Of a stretch of 64,000 nucleotides of DNA, positions 1,540 through 59,513 are shown in pieces. The stretch spans positions 512,001 through 576,000 of the forward strand of contig CAWKFG010000001.1 in assembly GCA_963848965.1 (NCBI GenBank). Direction: 5' to 3'. The first letter of the stretch is position 1, and each line of letters opens with the position of its first letter. Both the position numbers and the translations under genes were made by a program. The notes under the pieces are model-generated. The model saw only the letters and a list, made by a program, of their open reading frames with translations, did no database searches and was not told the DNA's origin. This DNA is from an uncultured bacterium (GTDB taxonomy: Bacteria > Babelota > Babeliae > Babelales > Babelaceae).

Positions 1540-2214
1540 ATGCAATTTCTTCAAAAGCTTATGGTAATAAGTATTTTATTAGGCATACAAGAAACTACTT
1601 TGTATTCAATGCATGAGCCCAGTTTAAAAGATTCTGTACAAAAGAGGCAAAACAAACATATCACTTTTGTAACTGGAAACAAAGACAAGTTTGAAGAAGT
1701 AAAACAGTATCTTACTACACTTGATTCATCGATTGTTCTTGAGCAGATAGCTTTAGATCTTCCAGAATATCAAGGCCTTGATATAAAAAAGATTGCTCTA
1801 GCAAAAGCACAGGAAGCCTGGAGGTTACTGCAAAAACCTGTATTAATTGATGATGGCGGTATTTACCTTGAACGATTCAATAGTTTCCCTGGTCCGCTCA
1901 TTAAATATGTGTTTCAAGGTATTGGTTTTGAGGGCTTTTGGTTATTAGCCAAAGATGATCCGCGGGCATGCTTTCTAAGTTGCTTGGTCTACTACTATGA
2001 GCCAAACAAATATGAGATTTTTGAGGGTACTTGTTATGGTACAATTATTAAACCAAATGGAGTTATATCGCGCGAGCAGATGCCATTTAGCGATATTTTT
2101 ATTCCTCAAGAAGCTACAAAAACACTTACTCAGATGCGAGGTACTCAACAAGAGTGCTTATATCATCATCGGTATAAAGCGCTTAAACTATTTGTTCAAT
2201 GGTTTAATAAATAA
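1540..2214 (+). CDS. HAM1/ITPase-family non-canonical purine NTP pyrophosphatase with N-terminal signal-peptide-like extension
   Basis: FVTGNKDKFEE, LPEYQG, IALAKA, PVLIDDGG, FPGPLIK and C-terminal HRYKAL motifs; hydrophobic N-terminus ending LYS|MHE. Confidence 0.85.
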   Translation: MQFLQKLMVISILLGIQETTLYSMHEPSLKDSVQKRQNKHITFVTGNKDKFEEVKQYLTTLDSSIVLEQIALDLPEYQGLDIKKIALAKAQEAWRLLQKPVLIDDGGIYLERFNSFPGPLIKYVFQGIGFEGFWLLAKDDPRACFLSCLVYYYEPNKYEIFEGTCYGTIIKPNGVISREQMPFSDIFIPQEATKTLTQMRGTQQECLYHHRYKALKLFVQWFNK

Positions 2215-2305
2215 TTAATTGTACCTGAAGTTTGCTGCAATTCTGATTTTGCTTGTGTGCAATTGCACTGCAAGCAATATACGCTATACTGATAAATAGT
2301 TAGTT

Positions 2306-3889
2306 ATGCAAATAAAGCTTTCTCTAATGAGGAAATGGTTAAATATGCTACTATTTAGAAAGAATTGTTATACGGCTTTTGTGAAAACCTTATCTTTTAT
2401 ACTTTGTATAGGCGCTTTTGAGTATCTTGTTGGAAATAATAGAATTAGCTATTTGATTGCAAATCCGCGAGCTTCTCTGGTTGAGTTTTTGAGAATGGTT
2501 GGCAATAGAGGTGACTTTAAGGTTATGCATATACCTGCAAATTGGGCTTACTGCCATGCACATAATTATACAGATATAGCAAAAGGCTGGTATAGAGAAG
2601 ATGCTCCTACTACCTATGCACAAGCAAAGGCTGATATTTTAAAAGAGGTAGAAAAAGCACCTGTCTTTGTAGGAGAAAATACTCATACAGCAAAAGATTT
2701 TTTAGAGTATGATAAAGACTTTATTAAGGATCCGCGCGTCCAATTGGTCTTTCTTATAAGTAATCCTCACCGTGCTATCATTGAGTATTATGAGAAAAAG
2801 AAAAACTATTTTGATAAATTACCTTCTTCTCAACTATCTGAATCAATAGGATTAAAGGATTTATACAAGCTTTTAGAAGATATGAAGAAGAACGGGCTTA
2901 CTCTGCCACTCATAATTAAATCTGAAGATCTTTATTATACTACAAAAGAAGCAGTACAGTCTGTATGTGATTATTTACACGTCCCTTTTAAAGAAGAATC
3001 TTTGCATTGGAAAGATATAAGTGAAAATTTCTCAAGTTTCACAGACCTTGGATGGTATACCATTGAGCTTACTGAATGTTCAAAGCATTGGCATGGTGAT
3101 GCTATTAAAAGTACAGGTTTTTCTGAACCACAGGCGTACGCCCTTGATAAGAATCACAATCCCACATTTGAAGAAATATCAAATCCAGAGCATCGAAGGA
3201 TTTGTATGCAAGCATATGAAGAAAATATAGCTTACTACAAATTATTACTTGCACATGGTTGGCAAAAGCCTCAGGCTGGCCCTTCAGAAAATAAAGTAAC
3301 ACTTGAAGCTTATGAAGCCCGTTTACAAGAATATACCAATAACACACCTCAGCATGTTGATGGCTTTATAAAGGAGTGGATTGATCATTCGTTAACATAT
3401 GTTAAAAAAGGAGAAACCATTCTTGAACTTGGTAGTGGTTGTGGACGTGATGCAGATTATATAGAATCGCAAGGTTATAAAGTTAAAAGGACGGATGCGG
3501 CTCATAGCTTTGTAGAACTTTTAAAAAAGCAAGGTAAAGAAGCTTTTTTACTTAATGCGATAACAGATGAGTTCACTAGTATATATTCTATGTTTTTTGC
3601 TAACGGTGTGTTTCTTCATTTTACTCCTGAAGAGACTAAAAAAGTTTTTAGTAAGGCTCACGCAAGTTTGAAAGCTGATGGAATTCTTGCTTGTACGGTA
3701 AAGCAGGGTGAAGGATCTGGTTGGTCTGAAGAAAAGCTTGGAATGCCTCGCTACTATTGTTATTGGCAGGAACAAAAGCTTCAAGAATTATTATATCAAA
3801 CTGGTTTTGAAGTCTTAGAGCTAAAAGTTAGTGAACGTGGTAAGAATGCTTCATGGATATCTATAATTGCTAGAAAGATAATTTCTTAA
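2306..3889 (+). CDS. Sulfotransferase-like (P-loop) domain fused to class I SAM-dependent methyltransferase; start uncertain (possibly GTG 2381)
   Basis: N-half: ANPRASLVEFLR..RGDFKVMH, FLISNPH, IIKSEDL, LHW, WHGDAIKSTGF. C-half: ILELGSGCGRDA, ANGVFLHF, GEGSGW. Confidence 0.65.
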   Translation: MQIKLSLMRKWLNMLLFRKNCYTAFVKTLSFILCIGAFEYLVGNNRISYLIANPRASLVEFLRMVGNRGDFKVMHIPANWAYCHAHNYTDIAKGWYREDAPTTYAQAKADILKEVEKAPVFVGENTHTAKDFLEYDKDFIKDPRVQLVFLISNPHRAIIEYYEKKKNYFDKLPSSQLSESIGLKDLYKLLEDMKKNGLTLPLIIKSEDLYYTTKEAVQSVCDYLHVPFKEESLHWKDISENFSSFTDLGWYTIELTECSKHWHGDAIKSTGFSEPQAYALDKNHNPTFEEISNPEHRRICMQAYEENIAYYKLLLAHGWQKPQAGPSENKVTLEAYEARLQEYTNNTPQHVDGFIKEWIDHSLTYVKKGETILELGSGCGRDADYIESQGYKVKRTDAAHSFVELLKKQGKEAFLLNAITDEFTSIYSMFFANGVFLHFTPEETKKVFSKAHASLKADGILACTVKQGEGSGWSEEKLGMPRYYCYWQEQKLQELLYQTGFEVLELKVSERGKNASWISIIARKIIS

Positions 3890-3899
3890 GTAGCACTCA

Positions 3900-4328: not shown

Positions 4329-4430
4329 AAAAGGTGTCCTTATTTGATTTTTTTTGAATGTATACTATGATTCTTATGTGAAAATATAAGCGTACTTATA
4401 CTTCTTGTCAAAGTTATATGTAAGGAATAT

Positions 4431-10967: not shown

Positions 10968-12110
10968 TTACTGAGTTTGTGCCTTTTTTGCAAGCTCCTG
11001 CTTTATACTTCTTTCTATAAGAGTACGTAATCTTTGTGTAGCAGGGCTATATCCTAAGTCACTAGCTTGTTTATAGTATCTTCTAGCGGCAGTTAGGTCT
11101 TTTTCTCGCTCTGCAAGTGCTCCTAAATTGAAAAAGGAACGTACCTTGTTTTGCTCTGCAGCGAGTAGAAACATCTGTCTTGCGTGTTCTTTTTCTCCTT
11201 GGTTAAAATAGATCATACCCAATCTGTGAGCTGCTCCTGGATGACTGTACGTTACTGCTTTTAGTAGTGCCTCTTTATATTCTGATGCTTTTTGTTGTTT
11301 TTGATAAATTCTAGCAAGATAATAATAGACATCACCTAGATATGTAGGCTCATCAGAACATATTTCTGCAGTAAGAGCTTTGTTAAAATTGTATTCTGCT
11401 TTTTGTAGATCATTTTCTTCAAATGCCATAAGCCCAAGATGGTAATAAGCATAACCACAGTTTCTATTGGCAGCTATACCTAAAAGTTTTTTAGCTTCAG
11501 TTCTGTTACCTTCTTTTTTATGTATGAGCGCTAGAGCATTTGTATTACCTGATTTTTGGTACCATTTGCGTGCTTCTTTATAATCTTCTTGTTGTTCTGC
11601 AAGTTTGCCAAGATTATCATAAACACTATTTTGATTTGATGATGCTGCTTGCATATACCATCTCTTTGCTTCTTCAAAGTTTTTTTCTTGAGCTGCGAGC
11701 TCTCCTAATCTATTTTGAGCTTGCCAAGAACCATACTTAGCTGCAAGATTATATTTTTCTAGTGCTGCTTTTGCTCTATTTCTGTCCTCTGCTATATTTT
11801 GTTTTTCGATAATTTTTCCTTCAATAAAGTATGTTAATGCGTGTGCTTGTGGGGAAAAATCTTCTGCATAAGGTACTAGAGTCTGAATTGAGGACGCAAT
11901 GGCCTTTTTTGCCCACATGAGAGCATCCTTGAGATTACCCTGATCTAAATAATCTTGTGCAAGTTGTAGTTGTGCTGAAGTATTGCCTTGTTGTGCACGG
12001 CTTATTAAAAGCTTTTGACCTGGTTTAGGTGGTTGTTCCATTGCCAATAAAGATGATAGTAAAGAAAAAGAGATAAGTAATTGCAACATTGTAAATAATA
12101 TTTTTTTCAT
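10968..12110 (-). CDS. Exported Sel1/TPR-repeat protein
   Basis: Repeated AQNRLG..A..WY..AA pattern; signal peptide ending LLA|MEQ. Confidence 0.85.
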   Translation of the reverse strand: MKKILFTMLQLLISFSLLSSLLAMEQPPKPGQKLLISRAQQGNTSAQLQLAQDYLDQGNLKDALMWAKKAIASSIQTLVPYAEDFSPQAHALTYFIEGKIIEKQNIAEDRNRAKAALEKYNLAAKYGSWQAQNRLGELAAQEKNFEEAKRWYMQAASSNQNSVYDNLGKLAEQQEDYKEARKWYQKSGNTNALALIHKKEGNRTEAKKLLGIAANRNCGYAYYHLGLMAFEENDLQKAEYNFNKALTAEICSDEPTYLGDVYYYLARIYQKQQKASEYKEALLKAVTYSHPGAAHRLGMIYFNQGEKEHARQMFLLAAEQNKVRSFFNLGALAEREKDLTAARRYYKQASDLGYSPATQRLRTLIERSIKQELAKKAQTQ

Positions 12111-12362: not shown

Positions 12363-12806
12363 ATGAAAAAGCACATTTTATTTTTGACAGCGGTTACTCT
12401 CATAATTCCTGCCGCACTTATGGCTATGCATCCGGAAGAGCAAACTCCATTACAAGGATTCATTGGAGGCAGTAGTATGCGCTGTATAGTGACGCCCAAT
12501 CTTATGTTGCTTGAGGGAGCGATTGCAAATAACTACAACAAAGTAGTGCAAGCGCTTGGCAAAGGGGCCTCAGCAGATGTTCGTGATGGTTATGCGAACC
12601 CTCTTCATATAGCTATAAAGAATGGCAATAAAAATATAGTAGAGCTTCTATTGCAGCATGGTGCGCGAGTAAACGCAGTAATGCAAGGTCTTACCCCTAT
12701 GCAAAGAGCAACTATGAATAATCAAGAAGAAATTATATCTCTTCTTATTGCTTATGGTGCAGAAGTTCCTGTAAATCAAGGACTAGCTCCTATGGATTTA
12801 GCGTAA
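12363..12806 (+). CDS. Exported ankyrin-repeat protein
   Basis: NPLHIAIKNGNKNIVELLLQHGARVN; signal peptide ending LMA|MHP. Confidence 0.9.
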   Translation: MKKHILFLTAVTLIIPAALMAMHPEEQTPLQGFIGGSSMRCIVTPNLMLLEGAIANNYNKVVQALGKGASADVRDGYANPLHIAIKNGNKNIVELLLQHGARVNAVMQGLTPMQRATMNNQEEIISLLIAYGAEVPVNQGLAPMDLA

Positions 12807-16748: not shown

Positions 16749-17063
16749 CTATTTTTTTGTACTTGATCGGATTAAAAATTCCTGCTCTATCAAGTTATAT
16801 ATATGTGGTGAAAGGTGGTAGATATTTTTCTGAGTATCTGTATAAATACATGTTCCTTCTATGGCGGTTGTTGTTCTAAAGCATTGTATTGTTGAGGCAT
16901 TAGGAAATACTGCTAAATAGTAAGTAATATAAGCTGTTGGTGTTTGATATATTCTTACAAGAGTTTCAAGCGGAGGTATTGGCGTAGCCTTTTTTTCTTC
17001 TACTGGCTCCATGCTATACAATAAAAAAAAATTTGCAATACATAGGAAAATGCGTTTCACCAT
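16749..17063 (-). CDS. Small exported hypothetical protein
   Basis: GAGGAG RBS, MVKRIFLCIANFFLLYS|MEP. Confidence 0.65.
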   Translation of the reverse strand: MVKRIFLCIANFFLLYSMEPVEEKKATPIPPLETLVRIYQTPTAYITYYLAVFPNASTIQCFRTTTAIEGTCIYTDTQKNIYHLSPHIYNLIEQEFLIRSSTKK

Positions 17064-17316: not shown

Positions 17317-20300
17317 ATGAGACAGTTTGTAGCGCTTCTGTTGCTTATGAGCGTATGTGTTGGTAACACCTTGTGTATGAAACGTGATAGAGAGGATGAG
17401 AAGCAGCATAAAAAGGTAAAAGAACCAAGAAGTAGTAAAAGTACAAAAGAAAACTCTAATTTAGAAAGAGAGCTTTTTAAGGCAATTGCTCAAAAGGATC
17501 ATACGTTAGTTCATAAGCTTATTAAGCAAGGGGTAAATATAAATACTCGAGGAACATATAAAACAACTCCTTTAATAGATGCAGTTAAAACTGGCGATAG
17601 TGAACTCGTGCGCCTTCTTCTTAGTGTAAACGCTCAGGTAAATGCTGAAGACAAGCACCTTGCTACTGCTTTAATGTATGCTGCTTATGCAGGAAATAAT
17701 GAAATTGTACGTATGCTTGCTGAAAAAAGCAAGCCTACTGAAAGTAACTCCAAAAGAGCCCTTATACTGGCATCTGCTTGTGGCCATTTAGAAATAGTAC
17801 AGTCTCTTATAGACCACGGTGTTCCTTTAGATGCTACCGAATTAGGTCAATTTTTAGGTACTTTTGTAAGCAAAGAAGATGGTGTAAAATTTAAAGGGAA
17901 CGTGTGTCCTTTAATTATTGCTTCATACTATGGTCACAGAACACTTGTTGAATGGTTCATAAAAAAAGATAAGTTCTCAATTAACACTAAATGCTATGGT
18001 CGTACCCCTTTAACAGCTGCTATAGAAGGAGGGCATAGAGACATTGTACTTATGCTCCTTAAACATGGTGCCAAAATTACTGTGGTAAAGACAGAGCATC
18101 CTCTTATTGTTGCTGTACAAAATAATCGTTATGACTGTGTAAAAGAACTTTTTGACCAAGGTCATTTTACTGCACAAACTATTGAGTATCGTACTAAAGA
18201 CGAACGAACTGCTCTTATGATTGCTGCTCAGTTAGGGTACGATAACATTATTGAGTTTCTTGTAGAAAAGTACATAATGCATGCAGTAAAATGTGAGGTC
18301 TACTATCAAGTGTTGTGTGGAGCTGTTGAAGGTGATCAAGAAGCGCTTGTGCATAAGTATATGCCATTACTGCTTGCTCTTGATGTAAAAGAAAGAACGA
18401 GAGGTATTTCTCGTGAGACGCCACTCATGCGTGCTGCTAAAATGGGTAAGGAGAAGATGGTAAAGCTGTTACTATCACTAGAAGCGTCATACTGGGACTG
18501 TAGATCAGCCTTAAGCCTTGCTCAAGACAGTGGACATAAGGAAGTAGCGGCACTTCTTGAAGGTGCTGTAAAGCGTAATACCGAAAGATACCAGCAGCTT
18601 TTAAATGCATGCTCACAAGGGGATGTGCCTCTTATAAAAGAGCTGTATCGTAAAGGAGAAGATATTTCTAATGAACCAGAAAAAAATCCTTTAATGCTTG
18701 CGGCTCAAGGTGGACATCGGGAAGCAGTATCGTTGCTTCTTGAGCATAGTACGTATAGAATAGAAGATGCTCTTCTATTAGCTGTGGAGGCTGGACATAC
18801 TGCGGTTGTAAAACTTTTGCTTGCAAAGGGCGCTCTTAATCCCGAGCGAGAATACCGTACTTTTTTTAGCAATGAGAAAAAAGTTACTCCACTTATGCGT
18901 GCAGTGGAATATGGATATACACATATTGTTGAGATGTTACTGAGTGCAGGGGCAGATATTTTTGCTCAAGATAAAGAAGGGCACAGCGCTTTAGCCTGGG
19001 CAAAGTTTAAAAACAACCATTCTATGGTAAGTATGCTTGAAGCAGAAATATGCTATAGAGAAGAATTATCCAAACGCTTTCTTCTAGCGTCAAGCTGTGG
19101 AAATGTAATTCAAGTGAAAGAGTTACTTGAGCAGCCTATAGATACTACCGTACAAGATGAAGAAGGTAGAACTGCTTTAGAGCTTGCTATTGTTAATAAT
19201 CACAAAGCAGTTGTTGAGCTTCTTATCGGATCACGAATGTACTCTCATGTCGACAAGGTTTTGGCTTTACAATATGCAGCCAAGACAAACGATAGTGCTC
19301 TCATAAAGTTTGTAGCAGATAAACTCGGTGAGCGACATATTTTAAGAGTAGACTTAAAGGCTCTTGAATGTGCTGCAATGCATGGAAATGAGAATGCTTT
19401 AAGTAGCCTTATAAACATGTATCTTCATGATTGCTATGGTCCTTCAAAAACAAAAAGGTTGAACGTTACTATAGCTACATTAGCAGGAGCTGCTCGAGGT
19501 AATAGAAGTATGCTTGTAAAGAAAACTTTAGGTAAATTAAAAAACTGGCCAGCCGATGGAAAGCGGTCGCTCCTTACTCTTGCTGCTGCAAATGGGTCAT
19601 TAGACATAGTAAAATTATTTATACAAAAAGGATGTCCTATAAATGAGCACGATGAAGAAGGGAGTAATGCGCTTATAGCAGCAGCACAAGGGGGCTTTAT
19701 AGAGCTTATGGAATTCTTGCTTGAGCAGGGTATTGATAATGCTCATGAAAATAAGCATGGTATATCTGCATTGGCATGTGCTGCAGGTACTGGTCAGAAG
19801 GATGCAATACAGATACTCCTCAAAAGAAGAGTTCCGATAACAAAAATGGCATTTCATCAAACAATAGCGCGAAATCATGAAGAGATTATAACTCTTCTCC
19901 TAGAAGCGAGTGAAGATAAACACTTTGCCCTTACTACCGCACTCTTTGAAGCTGTTATGTATGGTAGAACTACGTTGGTAGGATACTTAATAAAGCAGAT
20001 AGCACATTTAAATGTTAGAACAGAGAATAATAAGACACTTCTTATGGTTGCCATCGAATGCGATCATTGGGATATTGTAGAGCTTCTTATTGCATCAGGT
20101 GTAGATCTTTATGCCTGCGATGCACAAGGGCGTAGTGCCTTGCAGGTAGCGCAAGAAAAGGGAATGGAAGAAGCTTTTGAACGTATGTGTACTCATGCTT
20201 TACAAGGCAAAAATGAGATTTTACAAAGATTATTTAAAGCTGTTAGTGAGAATGATAAACCTTTGTTAGAAGAACTTTTAAAGAGTAAAGCTCACGTTTC

Positions 20301-27394: not shown

Positions 27395-27532
27395 TTAATC
27401 ACATTGTAAGAATATGTTGTTAGTCATTATAAAGTATTCTTTTAACTCTTTAACTGATTTTTGTTCAGGTGCCATTGCAAGGCACGTACCACTAAAACTT
27501 GCTACTAGTGCTAAGGCAAGTAGATTTTTCAT
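27395..27532 (-). CDS. 45-aa ORF (below track cutoff): signal peptide plus short Met-starting peptide, possible gene remnant
   Basis: Translated by hand: MKNLLALALVASFSGTCLA|MAPEQKSVKELKEYFIMTNNIFLQCD*. Confidence 0.55.
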   Translation of the reverse strand: MKNLLALALVASFSGTCLAMAPEQKSVKELKEYFIMTNNIFLQCD

Positions 27533-42202: not shown

Positions 42203-42481
42203 ATGAAACATCTGTATTTATTAGTGCTCTTTGTAAGTGTACCATTTTTTGCTTTTGCTGGCGGAGCAGAAAAGCGAGAAGCACAAGCATCAGAAGATAT
42301 TTCTATACATAAAAAGGCTCGTACGCAAGAGCTTCAAATAAGTATTACAGAACTGCTTATGCAGCAAAATACTTTTTTAGAGTCTCTCGCACAACGACTT
42401 GAAAACTTAAAGAAAAATAGTGAGGAATTTCTTAAAGAGATAGAGTATTTGGAGCAGCAACTGCTTACTAAAGGAAGCTGA
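42203..42481 (+). CDS. Small exported NLS + coiled-coil protein
   Basis: FAFA|GGAEKR-X11-KKAR, then heptad-rich helix. Confidence 0.7.
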   Translation: MKHLYLLVLFVSVPFFAFAGGAEKREAQASEDISIHKKARTQELQISITELLMQQNTFLESLAQRLENLKKNSEEFLKEIEYLEQQLLTKGS

Positions 42482-43646: not shown

Positions 43647-45593
43647 ATGAATAAAGTATTGTTAGCGCTTGCTCTAGGAATTTCGGGAAGCGTATTATAT
43701 GCAGGTGGTCAAGAGAAACGATCAGCAGATGAACATCCTCAAGTATCGCCATTAAAAAAATCGCGTACGACGGAAGAAGATGCTTCTGATAGTATACTTG
43801 CACAATTAAGAGAAGAGCTTACACAGTTTAAAGCTTCAGATATTCAGGCTTCTCTAAAGGCACTTGAAGAAAGAAACGAAAAGAATAGAGAAGAGTTTAA
43901 TAAGCTTAAAGCACGAGCAGGATCAGATACGCCTGCTTTACCAGCGCCTCCTAAACGACCTGCTGCAAAAATAACAGCAGTGCCACAATTGACTGGTCCA
44001 AAACCAGCAGCAAAAGCAAGTGATAACTCAAAAGAAAAAGAGAGCTCTCTTAGAACATCTCAAGGTAATGATCACTCAGTTAAAAAATTTAGAGCAACTA
44101 CAGATATTACTGCAAAGCCAGCTACTGGAACTCAAGATGGTGGTGTTAGTAACCCTATGTCTGCAAAACCTGCAGCTTCTCCTGAGGCCCCAAGCATTAT
44201 TAGGACTAAACAGCCGCTTATTCCTAGTTTACCAAAAGCTCCTGAGCAGACTGGTGTACCAGCTCAACTACCAATGCCTATAGTTGCTAAAGCTCCAGAG
44301 CAAACACATCTTTCTGCTCCAGTATTGCCTAAGGATTCAGAGCTTATAAGTGTACCTGCGCTTGCGCAAGCACCTCTAACAGCTAAGGCTCAAGAGATTG
44401 TAAATCTACCAGTACCAGCAGTTGCTAAACCTGCAGAAAGTGCACAATCAGAGATAGCAAAGACTACGAGAGTACAAGATTTGCTTGATGGCGGAGCTGC
44501 CGTGTCTATACCACATACTCTAAGCTTAGATAGTGGACTTTTTTCTACAAAAGAAGAGTCATTAACACCGCGTAAATTAAGTTTGTTACAAAGATTGAAT
44601 ACAATAAAAAGCCAAACAGTACAACGTCCTGCACAAAGCTCTATTTCTTGTATAATGTATTCACCTCTTACTAAAGAGTTGCTTGTAGGATGCCTTGATT
44701 GCAGTATACGAAAATACTCACAGCTTTCGCCATTATCAGGAAATAAAATTGGTGAGCATGATACTTCAGTAAAGTGTATGATTGTAGATCCTGTATCCCA
44801 AAAGTATCTTATTTCAGGTTCGTTCGACGGAGCTATAAAGGTATGGGATATTGCAGGGCAGCGATGTGTAGCATCATGGTTTGGTCATAACCGTGCTCTT
44901 CTTGCTTTCTTTATTAATCCCGAGAACCCCAATATTCTTATTTCTACTTCCGAGGATGGAACTCTGAAATTATGGGATTTAGGAAGCATTCGTCAAGCAG
45001 GAGAATTAAAGGGTGAATGTATTGTAGACAAATTTATATGTTCTCATGAGCTTACATTTAGTGAGCCTGTTACAGCAGTGACCTTTATACCAAGTGAGCC
45101 AACTGTTGCTTTCATTGGTAATGGTACTGAAATAGTGCTCTATGATTTAAGTAATGCAACCAAAGCTTATTCTTGGGATGATAATGTATTACTTAGTGCG
45201 CCTATAGCAGCGCTTTGTGGACATCCAGAAAATAGTGATTTGATAATTCTTGGGACACGAAATGGTGCGCTCTTTATATGGGATATTACAAAACCAAAAG
45301 AATCGCGCATTGTAGCCCAATTGAAAGCACCTGCATCTGTTAATATCAGCTCTTTAACAAAACTATCTATAGATTCTAAACAGCTTGTTTTACAAGCGAG
45401 TGATACTATTGCTCTTTGGAATCTTACAAATGGACGATTTATCACAAGTGTAAGAGTATCTGGGACAATTGCTAGTTTTGTGCTCGATCAAACAAAGATT
45501 GTTATAGCAACAGTTGCTGGACAACTTTTTACAGCAGATGTTATTCGTAATCAAGGAGAAATTACTGCATTTGGGCCGCTTACGGCCCTTTAA
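43647..45593 (+). CDS. Exported NLS + coiled-coil + Pro-rich linker + WD40 protein
   Basis: LYA|GGQEKR-X11-KKSR; SGSFDGAIKVWD, GHNR..STSEDGTLKLWD. Confidence 0.87.
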   Translation: MNKVLLALALGISGSVLYAGGQEKRSADEHPQVSPLKKSRTTEEDASDSILAQLREELTQFKASDIQASLKALEERNEKNREEFNKLKARAGSDTPALPAPPKRPAAKITAVPQLTGPKPAAKASDNSKEKESSLRTSQGNDHSVKKFRATTDITAKPATGTQDGGVSNPMSAKPAASPEAPSIIRTKQPLIPSLPKAPEQTGVPAQLPMPIVAKAPEQTHLSAPVLPKDSELISVPALAQAPLTAKAQEIVNLPVPAVAKPAESAQSEIAKTTRVQDLLDGGAAVSIPHTLSLDSGLFSTKEESLTPRKLSLLQRLNTIKSQTVQRPAQSSISCIMYSPLTKELLVGCLDCSIRKYSQLSPLSGNKIGEHDTSVKCMIVDPVSQKYLISGSFDGAIKVWDIAGQRCVASWFGHNRALLAFFINPENPNILISTSEDGTLKLWDLGSIRQAGELKGECIVDKFICSHELTFSEPVTAVTFIPSEPTVAFIGNGTEIVLYDLSNATKAYSWDDNVLLSAPIAALCGHPENSDLIILGTRNGALFIWDITKPKESRIVAQLKAPASVNISSLTKLSIDSKQLVLQASDTIALWNLTNGRFITSVRVSGTIASFVLDQTKIVIATVAGQLFTADVIRNQGEITAFGPLTAL

Positions 45594-45628: not shown

Positions 45629-46960
45629 ATGAGAACTTTATTTTACTTACTTTCTCTTGTGTTGTGCGTACAGACTGTACTCCACTGTGGTGGAGATAGT
45701 CCTAAGCGCAAACGAAATGATGATTCTTCCGAGAGTGCTTCAAGCCAAAAGAAGAAGAGATATTCGCAAGAAGAGCTGATACATATTATGAGCTTAATGC
45801 AAAAGTATCGTGAGCAGCGATTGAAAATACAGTCTCTTATAAAAGATCTTCAAAAAGGAACTGAAGAGATAGAGCAGAATATTGCATCTTTATATAAAGA
45901 ACGCGAGCAGGTTGAATCAGCAGATTCTTTCAATAGATCTGTAGAGTCTGATGAAGAAAGCGATGCTTCAACTGTAGGACGATCATCTCCTCTTTTAGCT
46001 GATTTTGATGCGATGGAAGAGATTGCTCAAGAAAAGAGAACTATGCCAGAATTGTGGCTCTTTCGGTATGATGCGCGCAGCAAGCAAGGATTTGCTTGTT
46101 ATGAAGGTAAATCTATTCGCGTATGGGATCTATCTTCGCGGCGTAGCATAGCAACTATTGCCGTTCCTGATGAAGGAGATATTTTGGATTTACGTATTCA
46201 TCCTTATAAACCACAGCATTGTATCATTGCAACGAAAGACTCAATACAAGTGCTCGGGCCAGCAGGATGCTTATGGAAAAGCAAAGTTGATGTAGGAAAG
46301 GACACTCGTGTTCTTTATATTAATCCTCATAATCAGCGGCAGTTATTTACTGGCCATGGTAATGGGATTGTACGCTTGTGGGACATTGAAACAGGAAAGC
46401 GTTTAAAAGAGTTTACTATGTTTGATACTTCCCGCGAAAATAGTAATGAAAATGCTATTTTTTCACTTTGTACTACTCAAGACAAAACGCTGATCGCTGC
46501 TACGTATAAAGGTAAAGTGAAGCTTAAAACAGAGGTCTCATCTATACCATTTCAATCTTTTCCTGCAGATGAGGAAAGTTTGCTTTATACTCATCCAATT
46601 GATAGTGGTAAGATTATTGTGGCTGGAAACGGTATAAGAATACGTAGTATACGAGGTAAAAATTGGCCACAAGCATTTAAAACTGCTGATGATGTAACTG
46701 CTGTTTGTACAATTCATAATTCATCTATGTATATTATAGCAGGTTTAAAAAATGGATCTATAGAGCTGTGGCGAGAGCTTGATGCTCATAATTACGCATT
46801 GATAACTACTTTTAGCAAATGCCATACAGGACCTATTATTTTCTTAGGGTTTGACGAAGAAAAGAACCAGCTTATTTCTGCTGGAGAGGATGGGTTAATT
46901 AAAGTGTGGGATTTAAACAAAGAGCGTACGTATGCCCATTGTGTAGATTCGCTTATATAA
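45629..46960 (+). CDS. Exported NLS + coiled-coil + WD40 protein
   Basis: LHC|GGDSPKRKR-X11-KKKR; IRVWD, GIVRLWD, SAGEDGLIKVWD. Confidence 0.87.
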   Translation: MRTLFYLLSLVLCVQTVLHCGGDSPKRKRNDDSSESASSQKKKRYSQEELIHIMSLMQKYREQRLKIQSLIKDLQKGTEEIEQNIASLYKEREQVESADSFNRSVESDEESDASTVGRSSPLLADFDAMEEIAQEKRTMPELWLFRYDARSKQGFACYEGKSIRVWDLSSRRSIATIAVPDEGDILDLRIHPYKPQHCIIATKDSIQVLGPAGCLWKSKVDVGKDTRVLYINPHNQRQLFTGHGNGIVRLWDIETGKRLKEFTMFDTSRENSNENAIFSLCTTQDKTLIAATYKGKVKLKTEVSSIPFQSFPADEESLLYTHPIDSGKIIVAGNGIRIRSIRGKNWPQAFKTADDVTAVCTIHNSSMYIIAGLKNGSIELWRELDAHNYALITTFSKCHTGPIIFLGFDEEKNQLISAGEDGLIKVWDLNKERTYAHCVDSLI

Positions 46961-47260: not shown

Positions 47261-48520
47261 ATGAGCTATAAAGTGATTGGAATGATCTGTTTTATGTGGT
47301 TGGGTTTATCTCTCTATGGAATGGAAAAGGAGCCTGTCTTAAAAGCAGCAATGCTTGAAGATGATTTTGGAGTTCTTAACGAACTTTTTGCTAAAATAGC
47401 ATTGGTTGAAAATGCCATAGAGCATTTTCTTAGTCAGGGTATTACGTCTAACATCTCTCATCGGAATTCTTTAGCTGTAGATTCAGCATATTTAAGTCCC
47501 CAGTGCAATTATATAATAGCTCAATCTGCAGGACCCGTGGTAGAAGTGTTTGATATAAGAAAATTCCCGGTAGTTGTGCCCTGTATTACGTGCCATGAAG
47601 GTGCAGCTAAATCTATAGCTATAAGCCAAGATGATAAATATATGTTAAAAGGATATCAAACTGGTATAGCAGAACTCAGCTTCCTCGAAAATTCTACTGG
47701 TAAACCATATGAGCTTTTTGGGCATACGGATGCTATTACTTCTGTAGCATTCAGTAAAGATAGGAGTTATGTGCTAACAGGATCACGGGATGGAACTGCA
47801 CGCATATGGGATATAAAAGCCCTTGAGGCTGTCAAATCATATGTTCTTACAGGTCATACAAAAGGTATTACTTCCGTAGCCACAAGCCCATCCAGCGACA
47901 AAGTGCTAACAGGATCATGGGATAAAACTGCACGAATATGGGATATAAGTAATCCTGAGTCTGTTACGTCATATGAACTTAAGGGCCATAAAGAAGATAT
48001 ACAGTGGGTACAATTTAGTCCAACGGGCACCTATGCTATAACAAGAGATAAAACAGAAGCATATTTATGGAATATAAGTGATCTCAAATCTATTACATCA
48101 CATCGTATAGGTGATAGAAGAGCTGTAAGCGCTATAGTATTTAGCCCAGATGAAAAATATCTCTTGATAGGATATTTTGAAGGTGCTGCACAAATGCTCG
48201 ATATACCTACTTTAAAGGGAACTGCTGTGTCATATACTCTTAAGGGTTTTACTAATCTTTGTTCTGGAGCATTTAGTCCAACAGGATTGCATATGCTGCT
48301 TGGATCGGCTGATGGTAGTGTAAAGCTTTGTACTATAACTGGCACTGACATTGTTGAAAAAACTAAGCTGGATGGGCATAATGGTTGGGTTTCGTCAGTA
48401 GTATGGAGCGTAAACGGAAGATATATTTTAACAGCATCGTGGGATGGAACGCTAGTACTACGAGATATGACTAGTCTTTGCACAGCTACAGAGCTTGCTT
48501 CAAAACGTAAGCAGATTTAG
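47261..48520 (+). CDS. Exported WD40-repeat protein
   Basis: GHTDAITSVAFS..LTGSRDGTARIWD repeats; signal peptide ending LYG|MEK. Confidence 0.92.
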   Translation: MSYKVIGMICFMWLGLSLYGMEKEPVLKAAMLEDDFGVLNELFAKIALVENAIEHFLSQGITSNISHRNSLAVDSAYLSPQCNYIIAQSAGPVVEVFDIRKFPVVVPCITCHEGAAKSIAISQDDKYMLKGYQTGIAELSFLENSTGKPYELFGHTDAITSVAFSKDRSYVLTGSRDGTARIWDIKALEAVKSYVLTGHTKGITSVATSPSSDKVLTGSWDKTARIWDISNPESVTSYELKGHKEDIQWVQFSPTGTYAITRDKTEAYLWNISDLKSITSHRIGDRRAVSAIVFSPDEKYLLIGYFEGAAQMLDIPTLKGTAVSYTLKGFTNLCSGAFSPTGLHMLLGSADGSVKLCTITGTDIVEKTKLDGHNGWVSSVVWSVNGRYILTASWDGTLVLRDMTSLCTATELASKRKQI

Positions 48521-50292: not shown

Positions 50293-51138
50293 ATGAATAG
50301 AAGAATATTACTATTTTTTAGTATATGTTTTAGTGGAATTTTAGTCGGAATGCACAATCTTGATAAGACTCAGCCTTGCTACCAGTATAGATTGGCAAAA
50401 CAAGCAGATGTACCAGCTTTACTTGACTTGATTAATACTCAAGCAATCCGTGATAATACAAAGATTGTTATTTTGCCAAAAGTATTTAGAGAAGGTGCTT
50501 TGCGATCGGCGATAGAAAAAAAGCGCATTTTTATTGCTTTAGATCAAGACCGTATTATTGGTTATAAAAAATTGTTTATAATGATGTGCGATCATGAAAA
50601 AAGCGATATCCTTAACGATGAAATTCGTTGCATTAATAATGAACAGAATTGTGTATTTGCAGGTTATATAGATAATGATACTATCTTTGTTCCCTGTGTA
50701 CCGCGCTTAGCTCATAATTGTTATAGCATTTGTATATACAATGGTGGTGATTTTACGTTGCCATCGTATCGTGGCAAGGGCATCAATCAACAGCTTACAA
50801 AAATGGCGTTGCTTTCTCTTGTTGCTGATGTGAAAGACTATATGCATAATCAAGGTGTAAATACTATAACTATGGTTTATGGAGTTACTCAAGCAAATGC
50901 TGGAATATATCCAGGAGCACCATCAGACCGTACTGTAAGTATTAGTAAAGCCTTTAAAGTGTTTATTCACATGGTGGAGGGTTACTTCAAACCGATTACT
51001 TTGCAGCATCAACGATATCGTGCATTTATGCCAACTTTTGATCCAGACTCTCAAGTATTACAGCCGCTGTCAGATGACCAATCCATTCCCGGCTTTGGTT
51101 GCGTATTAACATATATAGTAAGGAGAGAGCATGAATAA
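50293..51138 (+). CDS. Exported GNAT-like acetyltransferase
   Basis: YRLAKQADVPALLDL; acetyl-CoA motif TLPSYRGKGINQQL; signal peptide ending LVG|MHN. Confidence 0.65.
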   Translation: MNRRILLFFSICFSGILVGMHNLDKTQPCYQYRLAKQADVPALLDLINTQAIRDNTKIVILPKVFREGALRSAIEKKRIFIALDQDRIIGYKKLFIMMCDHEKSDILNDEIRCINNEQNCVFAGYIDNDTIFVPCVPRLAHNCYSICIYNGGDFTLPSYRGKGINQQLTKMALLSLVADVKDYMHNQGVNTITMVYGVTQANAGIYPGAPSDRTVSISKAFKVFIHMVEGYFKPITLQHQRYRAFMPTFDPDSQVLQPLSDDQSIPGFGCVLTYIVRREHE

Positions 51139-54283: not shown

Positions 54284-54874
54284 ATGAGACAAGTACTAGG
54301 GGCATATGTATTGTTTGTTGCTTCTGTTTATGCTATGGAGCCTGCGCCAGAAGAATCAAAAGAGAGCTCTTTGTCTGGTTATTTGACGCAAAAAACACGA
54401 AATGCTCTAGATAAAAAGAGCCCTACGAAAGCCACGGGAGATGTGGTTGAAGAGCGGCCTAGAAGTCGTTCTCTATATGAGAGTACTTCAAAAAAAAATG
54501 AAAAGCCAGTAAAGGAAGTTACATCTTTGGGGTCCTCACAGGCAAAATATGAAAATGCTAGGCATCTTTATAGAGAGAATCTACAGAAAGTTATAGCAGC
54601 AAACGCTGCTATTTGTCTTTGGCAAGCGGAGCTTGCAAATGTTAATACTAATGCAAAGCTCGTTTTAAGAAAAATAGATGAGCAAAAAGAGGAGCTTGCC
54701 AGCGCTTGGGCATACGTTAAAACATATCATCTTCGAATGCAAAAAGCTCTTGCTCCTCAACAGAGTACGCTGACCAATGAGCACTTTGAGCAGGCAGAGC
54801 TTCTTATACGAGGTGAAAAATGGCAAAAGCTTGAAGAATATCTTCCTTGTCTCAAGATAATGAGATCAAGCTAG
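54284..54874 (+). CDS. Exported hypothetical protein
   Basis: MRQVLGAYVLFVASVYA|MEP. Confidence 0.65.
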   Translation: MRQVLGAYVLFVASVYAMEPAPEESKESSLSGYLTQKTRNALDKKSPTKATGDVVEERPRSRSLYESTSKKNEKPVKEVTSLGSSQAKYENARHLYRENLQKVIAANAAICLWQAELANVNTNAKLVLRKIDEQKEELASAWAYVKTYHLRMQKALAPQQSTLTNEHFEQAELLIRGEKWQKLEEYLPCLKIMRSS

Positions 54875-55723: not shown

Positions 55724-56392
55724 ATGACAATAAAGGCATGTATAGCAGCAGTACTTGTGCTGGCAGGCACGGAACTTCTGGCTATGAGAGGAAGACGTGG
55801 CGACGAGTCCCGTGATACACAAGCAAGAAGATTTGAAGCAGGTAGACCACAAGAGGGTTCTTTAAGAGGCTTTAGGGGTTCACGTTTTGGTAGAGAAAGA
55901 TCCGCAGCCCGTCCTTTTGCTGGAGAGCGGTTTGGTCGTAGACTTGAAGCGCGAGATACAGATAAAGGATTTCCAAGAAGATCGCAAGGTAGAGGATTTG
56001 ATGGAGCTCGTCCTTTTGCAGGTAGAAGAGATGGAGTTCATCGAACAGCTCAACGTCCATTTCGATCAGGGCAATTTGCTAAATTCCGTACTCCGCAAAG
56101 ATTTGGGCAGCAAAGAGCATTTTTAAGAAGAACGTTTAGAGGTCACCCATGGAGCTGGTGGAGAAGCCATCATCCGAGATTATTCTCTAGAATATTCCCT
56201 GTCTACTTCTATCGTGTATATGGCTATTACCCGCCAGTATACTATGATTACTACGATACCTATGGTACTTATCCCGTTGTAGAGACTCAAGTGCAATCAG
56301 GCACATCTTTTAGAGCGTGTGTCCAAGACTGTCTCAATACATCAAATTTAAGTGTTGAAAATTGCCTTGGCAATTGTGGTGGCCAAGGATAA
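55724..56392 (+). CDS. Exported Arg/Gly/Phe-rich low-complexity protein with Tyr-rich and Cys-rich tail
   Basis: Signal peptide ending LLA|MRG; RF/RG/RPF repeats; YGYYPPVYY; CVQDC..CLGNC. Confidence 0.7.
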   Translation: MTIKACIAAVLVLAGTELLAMRGRRGDESRDTQARRFEAGRPQEGSLRGFRGSRFGRERSAARPFAGERFGRRLEARDTDKGFPRRSQGRGFDGARPFAGRRDGVHRTAQRPFRSGQFAKFRTPQRFGQQRAFLRRTFRGHPWSWWRSHHPRLFSRIFPVYFYRVYGYYPPVYYDYYDTYGTYPVVETQVQSGTSFRACVQDCLNTSNLSVENCLGNCGGQG

Positions 56393-56399: not shown

Positions 56400-56429
56400 G
56401 AGGCTGAAAGATCTTTCAGCCTCTTATTT
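56400..56429 (+). terminator. Intrinsic terminator
   Basis: GAGGCTGAAAG-AT-CTTTCAGCCTC followed by TTATTT. Confidence 0.75.
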
Positions 56430-56676: not shown

Positions 56677-57858
56677 ATGATGAAATGTATAGTAGTTTTG
56701 GCATGTATAGGAGCCTTTTTCTCTTGTATACAGATAGAAGCAGGTGGGCAAGAGGCTCTTGAGCACTTAGGAAAAGAGGAGCCTACTCTTTCTGGTATTC
56801 CTGCTGATATGCAGCGCTTTATTTGTAAGCTGCTTATTCAAGAACAGGAAAAGAATATAGAAAAAAATAAAGAAGAGTTTGATTGTGAAGACTATGATAC
56901 TCAAGAGGAAAAAGAGATAAAAAGATATAAAAACAATTATAAAGCTCTTGCTTTGCTTGCAGACGCTCTTGCGCCGCTTTTGATGAACAAGCGTTTAACT
57001 GCACTGGTTATAAAGCTTATCGCAGAACGACTGCAATGTTCAGAGTTTTTAGTTGCAACCTATCTAGCTGGTAAAACAACCTATCTGAGTAGTAAAATTT
57101 ACTTGTCTCTATGGCTTAAAAATAGCATTAGTACTACATCCGATAGTGATGTCCTTGCCAAAACTATTAATACGCTTGATCCTGTCTATGATACTAACCC
57201 TTTCTTTGAATCTCTTAAGCAAAAAAATGAAACTCTTATCAAGCTCCTTCTTGTACATGGTGCTCTCCTTTCTGTAGAAAATACTCGTAAAATGACTCCT
57301 TTAATGGTTGCGGCTCATCATCAAGAAGATTTTTTTAAGCAACGGCTTCATGTTGCAGTAGATGCTCTTTATTGTGATCCTCATCAGATAGTACAATCTT
57401 ATCTTAGTAAAAAAGATTACCAAGGAAGAACTGCTCTCTACCATGCAGTCAGAAAAAATAATCTTACTGCTACACAAGAGCTCTTAGGGTCTGGAGCAGA
57501 GATAAACGCAAAAACTAGTACTTCTACGACTTCTCTTCACCGTGCTGCTAGCAATGGAAATAGTGCTATTGTTTCGCTTTTATTGCAGAATGGTGCTCAT
57601 ATTAACGCTCAGGATTTTGGTGGAAAAACTCCACTTATGAGAGCTTTTATAGAGTGGGGTACTTATGCAGAAGAGAAGAAAAAATGGGATGACTATACTT
57701 CAGCTATTAGGGTACTTTTAGAAGATAAAAATATTGACCTTTTGGTAGAAGATAACGAGAATAAAACTGCAGTAGATTGGGCACAGATGCTTGCCGCTAT
57801 TAATATCCCTATTGCTACTTTATTGCCATCTCTTCAAGAAAAGCTTAACTTGCCATAA
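56677..57858 (+). CDS. Exported ankyrin protein with F-box-like motif
   Basis: IEA|GGQE; TLSGIPADMQRFICKLL; GRTALYHA, TTSLHRAA, GKTPLMRA. Confidence 0.85.
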   Translation: MMKCIVVLACIGAFFSCIQIEAGGQEALEHLGKEEPTLSGIPADMQRFICKLLIQEQEKNIEKNKEEFDCEDYDTQEEKEIKRYKNNYKALALLADALAPLLMNKRLTALVIKLIAERLQCSEFLVATYLAGKTTYLSSKIYLSLWLKNSISTTSDSDVLAKTINTLDPVYDTNPFFESLKQKNETLIKLLLVHGALLSVENTRKMTPLMVAAHHQEDFFKQRLHVAVDALYCDPHQIVQSYLSKKDYQGRTALYHAVRKNNLTATQELLGSGAEINAKTSTSTTSLHRAASNGNSAIVSLLLQNGAHINAQDFGGKTPLMRAFIEWGTYAEEKKKWDDYTSAIRVLLEDKNIDLLVEDNENKTAVDWAQMLAAINIPIATLLPSLQEKLNLP

Positions 57859-57900
57859 GAAACCATTTTATATTTCCAAAAATAGCTATATATTAAATAT

Positions 57901-57929
57901 TTGACAAATTTATATTCAAGTTGTAAAAT
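57901..57929 (+). promoter_or_regulatory. sigma70-type promoter
   Basis: TTGACA-17 nt-TAAAAT. Confidence 0.65.
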
Positions 57930-57992
57930 ATATACAAGCATGGTGTAGACTGTGCTTATAATTTATTTTAAAGACTCAAGGGGGATCTTCTT

Positions 57993-59513
57993 ATGTCTAT
58001 AAAACAACTTGGTCGTATACTTGTATTTTTATCTATAGGATCATTTGTTTATTCTATGGAGCCGGTAGATACGACGCCGGTAAGTCCTAAGGTGCATAGA
58101 CCGTTCCTTACTATTGAAGATATGAGGGAATGGAGACAGAATGCATCGATAAGAAAAGAGATAGCTAAAGCAGAAAGTTTGAAGTTGAAAGCTCTTAAAG
58201 CAGGGATTAACGCGTTAACTCCTGCAGAGGCGTTGCGCAAAGTTAACCAAGAGTTTGAGCATGCCAAAGGTGTTATAGTTGCTTGTGATAGAGTGCCTAA
58301 GAATACGTCTTCAAAGCAGACTGAGCTTGAAAAGCAAAGACAGGAGCTTGTTAAAATTAAGAGAGTATTTGATGATACTCCTGATATGTATGTTTATGCA
58401 CAAGAGCATGAGCAGGCTTTGTATGCGCAGTTAGTACCAGACATGATTACGCTTATAGAGCTTGGTGTGCAGTTAACAGAATTAACTAAGCGTGGGGTAG
58501 TCTTTGAAAAGTTGGCAACTGAATTTCAGGGTAAGCTTTCTGTTTTAATAGAAAATTATAATAAGGTAATTCGTTCTTTTGATCAATTTCTTAAGAAAGA
58601 GATGGCTGATTTAGAAACGGCACTTGTTCGTAAAGAGCAAGAGGTTCAGAAAGAAGCTGCTGCTGTTGAGACTATGCAAGAAGGTATAAGAGCTCGTAAA
58701 GAGCAAATCACAAAAGGGTTTAAGGTACAAAAAAACGCTCGTGCGATTTCAAATAACCTTGAACCGCAGCTTAAGCAAGCAGAGGCAAAGAAAGAGCACT
58801 CAGTACAACAATGTGCGATATTGTTTCATAGCTTTAAACAAAGCTTACAAAATTATGCTCAAAAGCAAACATATTGGGCTATTAATGATGTAGGTGCATT
58901 ACTTAATGCTATGATTGCACAGCTTGATAAAGAGTTTATAATAAGGGCATTTAATAGACTTGAAGCTGATCAAGCTCTAAGAAATATGGTAGGAACGGCT
59001 ATAGAACGATTTAAAGCAATTCCAGGCCTTTATGAAGGGCTTATGAGAACGCTTCAGAATTATTTGCTGCTTATATGTTCTCCAGATCTAGCACCGAGAG
59101 CAAAGGGTTATGAATGGGAGATTACAGTTGCTTGCTGGCTTTATAAGACGCTTGTTGAGCATCAAGATACAATGCGTATGAATTCTATGAAGAGCTTGCG
59201 TTCAAGAGATTTTTCACGTGAATTTGATATTGTTCTTGAAGAGCAAAGGGTGCTTATTGAGTGTAAGAATCGTCATTGGCATACTACTCATTTTAGTAAG
59301 ATTCATCAGCAATTTTTAGATCAAAAGGAAATTGCTCAAGAGTTGAAGTATTTGTTTATGATTGTTTCTCGCCATACATTAGATTATGAGATGAGAAGGT
59401 TTCTTCGTCAAAAAGATATTCTCTATCTTGAGCCGGGAACATCACTCGAGCTTTCTATTCTTAAAGAGCCGTGCAATACATTGTATACAGATACCTATTG
59501 TACACATAAATAA
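57993..59513 (+). CDS. Exported coiled-coil protein with C-terminal PD-(D/E)XK nuclease-like domain
   Basis: VYS|MEP; KGYEWE...REFDIV...LIECKN. Confidence 0.65.
   Translation: MSIKQLGRILVFLSIGSFVYSMEPVDTTPVSPKVHRPFLTIEDMREWRQNASIRKEIAKAESLKLKALKAGINALTPAEALRKVNQEFEHAKGVIVACDRVPKNTSSKQTELEKQRQELVKIKRVFDDTPDMYVYAQEHEQALYAQLVPDMITLIELGVQLTELTKRGVVFEKLATEFQGKLSVLIENYNKVIRSFDQFLKKEMADLETALVRKEQEVQKEAAAVETMQEGIRARKEQITKGFKVQKNARAISNNLEPQLKQAEAKKEHSVQQCAILFHSFKQSLQNYAQKQTYWAINDVGALLNAMIAQLDKEFIIRAFNRLEADQALRNMVGTAIERFKAIPGLYEGLMRTLQNYLLLICSPDLAPRAKGYEWEITVACWLYKTLVEHQDTMRMNSMKSLRSRDFSREFDIVLEEQRVLIECKNRHWHTTHFSKIHQQFLDQKEIAQELKYLFMIVSRHTLDYEMRRFLRQKDILYLEPGTSLELSILKEPCNTLYTDTYCTHK

Follow-up and report, generated by a model that had tools for sequence, protein, structure and literature searches.

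Why should so many of the exported proteins encoded in one stretch of a bacterial genome begin, once their leaders are removed, with the same residue? The question arises from 64 kb of DNA of an uncultured bacterium of the family Babelaceae (contig CAWKFG010000001.1 of assembly GCA_963848965.1; G000:C1:512001-576000 in our coordinates, hereafter the window), in which open reading frames (ORFs) with hydrophobic N-terminal leaders carry a methionine at the junction of leader and mature protein. The source genome, G000, comprises 1.73 Mb in 5 contigs at 37% G+C and is 88.7% complete. The original prediction, made from the letters of the window, listed 15 N-termini in which Met directly follows the small residue closing the leader and four in which Gly-Gly does so; translation from the given starts reproduced all 15 of the former and all four of the latter. 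Its description of the ORFs as unrelated held in part: by Pfam, five are ankyrin proteins (12363, 17317, 27373, 31069 and 41924), while the rest are a mixed set of one TPR, one WD40 and one Ham1 protein and six without a match, the 45-codon ORF at 27532 having been left out of the scan. We find that these junctions follow a class-specific rule for residues +1 and +2 at predicted signal peptidase I (SPase I) sites, and that the rule extends throughout the genome.

The genome-wide analysis used ORFs called from the first ATG, of at least 90 residues and with overlaps resolved, which gave 1403 ORFs covering 85% of the genome. An ORF was termed signal-peptide-like when an uncharged eight-residue core near its N-terminus had a mean Kyte-Doolittle value of at least 2.0 and no later hydrophobic 19-mer was present, and 587 of the 1403 belong to this set; signal peptides and cleavage sites throughout are predicted ones, called by our own hydrophobicity and -3/-1 heuristics. 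A carrier is a signal-peptide-like ORF with [AGSCT]-Met 3-13 residues past the hydrophobic core. Among the 587, Met occurs in that interval in 279, [AGSCT]-Met in 244 and [AGSCT]-Met-[EQDK] in 186, whereas about 35 carriers would be expected from cytoplasm-like ORFs at matching positions (23/386; z = 36). Over background composition Met is enriched 24.9-fold and every other residue at most 6.6-fold. Met counts peak at 0-based positions 18-21 (48, 64, 47 and 47) against 6-26 elsewhere between positions 10 and 39, and counting in the ORFs with later hydrophobic segments brings the carriers to 302 of 768. A subset of 233 carriers served for the Shine-Dalgarno (SD), family and leader-similarity analyses.

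The junction has the consensus L-[YF]-[AGS]/M-E-[KPQ]-[ED], the slash marking the predicted cut. In the underlying profile -3 is L, I, V, S or T, -2 is Y or F, -1 is A, S or G, +3 is Lys, Pro or Gln and +4 is Glu, Ala or Asp, with a return to background by about +8. Behind the junction Met, position +2 is Glu in 48% of cases, Gln in 13% and Lys in 10%, and the motif holds 1.28 bits at +2, 0.42 at +3 and 0.50 at +4. Residue 2 is E, Q, D or N in 165 of the 244 carriers (background 20%) and bulky hydrophobic in 17 (background 29%). By comparison, Glu follows the start Met in 7.8% of cytoplasm-like ORFs.

On the leader side, the residues at -1 are A (0.36), S (0.25), G (0.24), C (0.08) and T (0.07), this class being part of the carrier selection; in the set unselected for -1, a small residue stands there in 233 of 279. 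Position -3 is L (0.36) or I (0.14), then S, T or V. Lys is the top non-Met residue at -18 to -16 (0.17-0.25), L, I and F dominate from -15 to -7, and all 19 window cases conform to a positive n-region followed by an uncharged hydrophobic core. Applied to the 233 carriers on which it was trained, a position matrix of -10 to -1 that is blind to Met places the cut just before Met in 175. One S26 signal peptidase was matched in the source genome (PF10502, G000:C1:323737-324447, 123 bits), and the predicted c-region of the Met-class junctions fits the SPase I -3/-1 rule (L/I/V, Y/F, A/G/S). Synonymous codon use at -3, -2, -1, +2 and +3 is close to genome-wide, save for some shift among the Ser codons at -1; a nucleotide-level motif was therefore rejected, and the constraint acts on the protein.

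Two other types of processing site were considered for these leaders and set aside. The lipobox of lipoproteins reads L-[ASTVI]-[GAS]-C, with Cys as +1, and the junctions that contain Cys (SLLC/M, NTLC/M, ISYC/M and VLHC/GG) have Leu, Tyr or His where G, A or S is needed. Type IV prepilins have a short charged leader cut after Gly and before Phe or Met, Glu at +5 and a hydrophobic stretch past the cut, whereas Met-class proteins have theirs on the leader side of the cut and a polar mature start. Two small ORFs of the window (25430-25792 and 25789-26274, both on the + strand) do have prepilin-type N-termini (…KQRG/FLLFE… and MKPG/FTLLES…); they lie among effector-like genes and are likely pseudopilins of a type II or type IV pilus-like system.

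Which proteins carry the Met was assessed by Pfam in a sample of 140 signal-peptide-like ORFs of at most 900 residues, lying within single 20-kb loci of G000:C4:200-600 kb. The 53 carriers in the sample comprise 19 Ank proteins (one with PP2C), three WD40 and one RING protein, one each of AAA, LigT, CPT-like kinase, DUF2608 and Cache, and 25 without a match. The 87 non-carriers include Omp85/POTRA, two penicillin-binding proteins, two S49 peptidases, OEP, SBP, rotamase, MreC, amidase_3, NamZ, PASTA, multicopper oxidase and six GT1 glycosyltransferases, and the only eukaryote-like domains among them are three Ank, one WD40 and one MYND; this set also holds some cytoplasmic false positives of the heuristic (tRNA synthetases). 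Ank, WD40, RING or MYND domains thus occur in 23/53 carriers against 5/87 non-carriers (Fisher p = 1e-7), in agreement with the class of eukaryote-domain effectors that the original prediction had in mind. Envelope families show the reverse, with 1/53 carriers (the Cache protein) against 13/87 non-carriers (Fisher p = 0.017), so that an equal frequency of +1 Met in housekeeping envelope proteins, which would have spoken against the idea, was not seen. Indeed, the envelope proteins of the source genome start with Q, E, K, D or L after the predicted cut, as in …LSA/QELNEE (BamA), …LSA/EQSN and …VFS/QFTP, and exported glycosyltransferases and GNATs have hydrophobic N-termini without a junction Met.

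A genome-wide count of ankyrin ORFs by a regular expression gave 60 with leader and Met and ten with a leader without Met, inspection by eye revealing the motif in four of the ten. Another 35 contain hydrophobic segments further on, and nine were called leaderless, five of these having non-ATG leaders. The Met rule, as read from predicted junctions, is specific to one class of host-directed-looking proteins and spares envelope proteins.

The 60 comparison relatives drawn from the phylum are all of the same order (Babeliales). The distribution of the rule was followed by protein-level counts in 200-kb samples of six relatives and 400 kb of each outgroup; the f-numbers denote Babeliales families, f1 being that of the source genome. 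Carriers make up 17/58 signal-peptide-like ORFs in G048 (f1), 21/67 in G005 (f3), 20/57 in G001 (f2) and 17/76 in G040 (f6), against 5/56 in G041 (f10) and 4/64 in G008 (f5), two equally AT-rich Babeliales. The same pipeline gave 7/113 in Bdellovibrio and 2/59 in Luteibacter. By eye, ankyrin leaders in G040 and G041 are followed mostly by Ser, Ala or Thr.

Across 151 Babeliales genomes, a narrow DNA pattern for [x-T-x]-[Y/F]-[A/G/S/C]-Met-Glu (TNTWYKSNATGGAR) matched 2037 times against 917 for its reverse, with pattern-to-reverse ratios of 4.6 in f2, 3.9 in f8, 2.6 in f3, 2.2 in f6, 1.9 in f1, 1.3 in f5 and 0.9 in f9. This comparison is noisy, uses the narrowest form of the motif with an imperfect control and provides a rough map only; the source genome itself scores 29 against 17 although it has the strongest protein-level signal. 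Taken together, these counts indicate a rule that is lineage-specific within Babeliales and at background level in the two outgroup samples.

The leaders themselves bear the marks of translation. An SD 4-mer precedes the first ATG in 53% of the 233 carriers and the internal ATG in 2.6%, compared with 10% for random internal Met codons; G stands at -9 of the first ATG in 52%, and the sequence upstream of the internal ATG shows coding periodicity. Most of the 15 Met cases of the window have an AGGA/GAGG-type site a few bases 5' of the first ATG, and leaders in the window examples are about 17-23 residues long. Five of six seemingly leaderless ankyrin ORFs starting with ME, MD or MK proved to have an SD site and a GTG- or TTG-start leader upstream (the sixth, MNEF, has none), and leaders of this kind lie 5' of the junction ATG in 15 genes genome-wide, for example on C1 (-) and C4. 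The possibility that the internal Met is the true start, which the original prediction had named as fatal to it, thus found no support in ribosome-binding sites.

Grouped by BLAST of their mature parts, the 233 carriers fall into 104 families: the largest, of ankyrin proteins, has 89 members, the next have 15, 9 and 5, and 89 families are singletons. Leader nucleotide sequences, compared all against all by blastn from -100 to +12 nt past the ATG, are similar in 53 of 27,028 pairs, and 27 of these 53 are also alike in the mature part. In 404 paralogue pairs with flank identity below 50%, which are not independent of one another, the Met column is identical in 57% and flanking columns in 19-40%, with +2 at 40%. 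The Met appears in these alignments to be under purifying selection at the protein level, across about 100 unrelated families.

For two of the carriers, orthologues point to the origin of the leader. G048 encodes a Ham1 orthologue (70% identity) and G001 a CPT-like kinase orthologue (67% identity) that lack a leader, in-frame stops and an SD site lying just upstream in both cases; leaders were, on this comparative evidence, added to formerly cytosolic proteins. Most of 61 Ham1 homologues are leaderless, and nearly all of the leaderless ones start 2-8 residues before the I-x-F-V-T motif. Leader-like N-termini occur in eight of the 61, five of which have a junction Met, 8-17 residues before the motif. 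The old start Met survives in the homologue P0033 together with the junction Met-Glu, and in the homologue P0020 after a leader that has no junction Met. Since junction Mets lie 8-17 residues before the domain and the ancestral start, in most homologues, 2-8, the junction Met of this family is not the ancestral start. The suggestion that signal-peptide cassettes had been grafted in front of original start codons is therefore mostly unsupported: leaders were added to formerly cytosolic proteins such as Ham1 and the CPT-like kinase, but a shared grafted cassette is rejected by the rarity of similar leader pairs, and the junction Met is distinguished from an old start by its position in Ham1 and by the excess of Glu behind it.

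How, then, is the junction Met to be explained? That it serves as a second initiation site, giving exported and cytoplasmic isoforms, or in the extreme as the only start, with the leaders artefacts, is very improbable. U-rich leader-coding RNA could favour SD-independent initiation, and ATG-first or short-ORF calling does yield 'leaderless' versions that start at the junction Met. Against this, SD sites are clear at the first start and nearly absent at the internal one, codons upstream of the junction obey n-region, h-region and -3/-1 constraints, GTG- and TTG-start leaders are preceded by SD sites, other AT-rich genomes put through the same pipeline stay at background, and about 250 cytosolic repeat proteins would be without evident use in the bacterium. 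Because of the first four of these observations we regard the leaders as real, translated Sec-type signal peptides.

A historical relic is an improbable explanation, if less so than dual products: ORFs would have extended 5' into T-rich DNA before old starts, the junction Met being a former initiator kept by gene youth or weak constraint. Leader gain is indeed real, as the leaderless orthologues with their upstream stops and SD sites indicate, the Met-Glu start of the homologue P0003 stands exactly 17 residues ahead of the Ham1 domain, a distance shared by the junction Met of the source genome, carriers are enriched in cytosolic-type domains, and homologue P0002 has Arg in place of Met. Leaderless paralogues starting at the same Met were dropped as support for such a relic, given the GTG/TTG leaders found in five of the six checked. 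The spacing in Ham1 speaks against it, with P0033 keeping both Mets and P0020 the old one alone, as do the scarcity of Glu after ordinary start Mets, a Met column kept across 104 families where flanks are saturated, the preponderance of Met among leader-bearing ankyrin proteins (60 against 10 by the regular expression), the hydrophobic N-termini without Met of exported glycosyltransferases and GNATs, and relatives with equally large secretomes that lack the rule. The relic model can account for the origin of some leaders but not for the retention of the Met.

The reading that we favour, to which we assign a probability of about 0.4, is that the rule would give Sec-processed effectors a host-compatible, Met-initiated N-terminus. 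A single LepB-type peptidase would cut before the Met, leaving a mature protein that starts with unformylated Met, usually as Met-Glu, Met-Gln or Met-Asp. After Sec export the carriers would probably leave via a secretin or type II-like apparatus, and the ankyrin, WD40, RING and orphan carriers may act in the host cytoplasm. There, a Met-(acidic/polar) start would lend the effectors the N-terminus of an ordinary cytosolic eukaryotic protein and would avoid the Glu, Gln, Lys, Asp and Leu starts that the bacterium's own envelope proteins bear after cleavage, starts that would constitute N-degrons in a eukaryotic cytosol, by rules assumed here for a protist host. Met-Glu would then act as a stability or 'native look' tag rather than as a peptidase requirement. 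We lean towards this reading because residue 2 is so often E, Q, D or N and so seldom bulky hydrophobic, because the minor variant is Gly and because envelope proteins start with Q, E, K, D or L; it is compatible with all that we found.

Several points weigh against the favoured reading. Ala, Ser, Thr, Gly and Val starts would be equally stabilising and are easier for signal peptidase, so that avoidance of N-degrons alone leaves both the dominance of Met and the 48% Glu unexplained. Stabilising +1 residues occur in 119/218 accessory against 7/27 conserved exported proteins of six relatives (p = 0.007), a weak contrast that depends on a crude site predictor and a tiny conserved class and that includes a value near that of ordinary bacteria. 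The closest Ham1 homologue, P0002 (82% identity, on a 6-kb contig), has an almost unchanged leader with Arg for Met (…TTLYS/RQEPS). In G048, leaders are present on six of seven carrier orthologues, five of the six being without Met; the orthologue of the orphan at 50293, for one, has a leader and no Met. The Ham1 homologues and the G048 orthologues together imply that existing leaders have both acquired and lost the Met, the constraint on which is lineage-bound and not absolute. Finally, the host N-degron rules are assumed for a host that is a protist, and the cleavage site, N-terminal state, secretion route and host location of the carriers are predictions from sequence.

The main rival, which we consider doubtful, is a sorting tag: a mature Met-Glu-(Lys/Pro/Gln)-(Glu/Asp) start would be read in the periplasm and route the class to a secretin or type II-like apparatus or to vesicles. 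A likeness exists in Bacteroidetes, where acidic residues after the lipid-modified Cys route lipoproteins to the surface. The selection on Met, the strict class specificity and the information that continues past Met and fades by +8 all fit such a tag, and the very different folds of the carriers suggest a linear rather than a structural signal. The source genome has three large secretin genes in tandem (G000:C4:764525-775000; open frames of 1153, 818 and 796 residues) and two T2SSE-type ATPases, and the markers FHIPEP and VirB4 of type III and type IV secretion found no match in this 88.7% complete genome. On the other hand, there is little information beyond Met, ankyrin proteins of other Babeliales families carry leaders without Met, and no lineage-specific partner was found, the one candidate tested, a RimJ/L-like GNAT, failing to track the rule. 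Type II secretion with two gspD copies is, by the comparative part of PMC4776705, common to the seven TM6 genomes compared, yet f5, f9 and f4 lie near the control for the motif.

Of the six GNAT genes, four have signal-peptide-like N-termini without Met (C4:739307-739843, C4:849042-849737, C5:65882-66487 and C4:495730-496557). One leader-bearing GNAT is RimJ/L-like (PF13302, 8e-34; its NCBIfam matches are all below cut-off). As a general partner it was rejected, being patchy (29/151 Babeliales genomes) and absent from the motif-rich f2 genomes listed. A periplasmic Met aminopeptidase was likewise rejected, since both Peptidase_M24 genes are without a leader. It is tempting to speculate further that Met-Glu is a targeting code, the first linear N-terminal signal to send Sec-processed bacterial proteins via a secretin-type step into the host, or that the host recognises it through an N-terminal pathway, acetylation for example, a proposal that we hold to be as doubtful as the sorting tag. 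If either were true, the effector repertoire of many Babeliales could be read from a four-residue motif.

Within the window, housekeeping genes (IleRS, L9, DnaB, RuvC, DnaN, RecF and G6PD) are interspersed, by Pfam, with ankyrin, WD40, TPR, zf-MYND, RING/IBR and Fic proteins and many orphans; an Rfam scan of the window gave no match. The 19 junctions are collected in Table 1.

Table 1. Leader-mature junctions in the window (window coordinates; slash, predicted cut)
Feature	Coordinates	Strand	Junction
Ham1/ITPase, exported: leader and junction ATG	1540..1611 (leader 1540-1608, ATG 1609-1611)	+	...TTLYS/MHEPS
TPR protein: leader and junction ATG	12039..12110	-	...SSLLA/MEQPP
147-aa ankyrin protein: leader and junction ATG	12363..12428	+	...AALMA/MHPEE
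Orphan ORF: leader and junction ATG	17010..17063	-	...FLLYS/MEPVE
1652-aa ankyrin protein: leader and junction ATG	17317..17379	+	...GNTLC/MKRDR
Ankyrin protein: leader and junction ATG	27311..27373	-	...SINFA/MQKQP
45-codon ORF: leader and junction ATG	27473..27532	-	...GTCLA/MAPEQ
Ankyrin and zf-MYND protein: leader and junction ATG	31007..31069	-	...CISYC/MDQAS
Orphan protein: leader and junction ATG	39061..39120	-	...SSLLC/MEKSN
Ankyrin protein: leader and junction ATG	41862..41924	-	...HSLQA/MKRPK
WD40 protein: leader and junction ATG	47261..47323	+	...LSLYG/MEKEP
Orphan protein: leader and junction ATG	50293..50352	+	...GILVG/MHNLD
Orphan protein: leader and junction ATG	54284..54337	+	...ASVYA/MEPAP
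Orphan Arg/Gly-rich protein: leader and junction ATG	55724..55786	+	...TELLA/MRGRR
506-aa orphan protein: leader and junction ATG	57993..58058	+	...SFVYS/MEPVD
Gly-Gly variant, 92-aa ORF	42203..42262	+	...FAFA/GGAEKRE
Gly-Gly variant, WD40 protein	43647..43706	+	...VLYA/GGQEKRS
Gly-Gly variant, WD40 protein	45629..45691	+	...VLHC/GGDSPKRK
Gly-Gly variant, ankyrin protein	56677..56745	+	...QIEA/GGQEALE

The Gly-Gly group is a local paralogue feature. Three of its four window members lie next to one another and resemble each other in their GG-x-EKR/SPKRK starts; two encode WD40 proteins, and the third is a 92-residue ORF without a Pfam match. Genome-wide, [AGSC]-G-G past the core occurs in 12 of the 587 signal-peptide-like ORFs, four of these in the window, and Gly-Gly as a second general rule was rejected for its rarity and local clustering. 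Myristoylation, which had been raised for these proteins, gains nothing from so small a local family.

Several neighbouring genes deserve mention in their own right. The 45-codon ORF (27395-27532, -) has a full leader and Met-Ala-Pro-Glu and stops just 5' of the leader-bearing ankyrin gene at 27373; it looks like the leader remnant of a truncated effector gene. A hydrophobic N-terminal segment is also present in glucose-6-phosphate dehydrogenase (48603-49979, +) and an M20 peptidase (51131-52414, +), two cytosolic-type enzymes that, judged by this segment, bear export or anchor signals. ORFs of 177 and 175 residues (4431-4964 and 6772-7299, both +) have near-identical N-termini (MRYIIALLAQEP…) and flank a 517-residue orphan with hydrophobic segments; by Pfam, at the threshold used, the latter of the two matches the 2'-5' RNA ligase superfamily and the former no family. 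Two adjacent RING/IBR (RBR-type E3-like) proteins (60282-62387, -, and 62625-63752, +) have hydrophobic N-termini without the Met motif and lie beside a Fic-domain protein. Outside the window, a leader-bearing protein of 326 residues (G000:C4:316743-317723, -) has a short match to PF12919 (TcdA/TcdB-type glycosyltransferase; E = 6.9e-9, 35.9 bits) and sits inside a cluster of exported GT1 glycosyltransferases.

Exported ankyrin proteins are already familiar in this phylum, the Dependentiae. By the main text of PMC4378268, 79 of 126 ankyrin proteins of Babela massiliensis have signal peptides, and secretion into the host cytoplasm is presumed; in Chromulinavorax destructans, by the main text of PMC6561590, signal peptides occur on 44% of coding sequences and, among ankyrin proteins, on 78%, and release to the host is presumed to depend on Sec. 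The Met carriers belong to the same phylum and the same protein classes as these proteins. A residue rule at the cleavage site is absent from both main texts, supplements aside ('methionine' does not occur in the former, nor 'motif', 'cleavage' or 'N-terminal' in the latter), and the comparative part of PMC4776705 on TM6 genomes does not mention one. The paper on the Q-rule of Bacteroidetes is likewise without 'methionine', 'TM6' or 'Dependentiae'. We found no paper describing the Met rule, supplementary tables aside, and a Met rule at effector signal peptides is apparently undescribed.

Dependentiae are widespread protist parasites, and the rule separates host-directed from own envelope proteins. 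It may therefore be of use as a practical effector predictor, which flags about 250-300 genes in the source genome. It also has a consequence for annotation, since calling the internal ATG as the start turns exported effectors into 'cytoplasmic' proteins.

With classical Sec/SPase I signal peptides the leaders share a Lys/Arg-rich n-region, a Ser-rich c-region, a small -1 and an aliphatic or small -3 residue; to these the Met rule adds a near-invariant +1 Met and a +2 Glu, in one functional class only, while the outgroups stay at background. In the Plasmodium PEXEL, the oomycete RxLR and the Bacteroidetes lipoprotein export signal, too, a short motif near the signal-peptide cut marks a host- or surface-bound subset, and PEXEL processing leaves E, Q or D at position 2 of the mature N-terminus. 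The Met motif differs from all three in standing exactly at +1/+2, in being bacterial and in implying no second protease or lipid modification. The closest parallel in form is the Q-rule, by which Gln occupies +1 of most SPase I substrates of Bacteroidetes and is cyclised to pyroglutamate (PMC5837995 and PMC10653852). Both are lineage-specific preferences for a single +1 residue at SPase I sites, and the Q-rule is thought to set the chemistry of the mature N-terminus. The Q-rule applies to the majority of exported proteins, and its modifying enzyme is known; no such enzyme is known for the Met class, which, at 244 of 587 and largely without envelope housekeeping families, does not dominate the lineage's exported proteins but is confined to an effector-like class and spares the envelope. 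After the Q-rule, the Met rule would be a second case in which a lineage has recast residue +1 of its signal peptidase sites.

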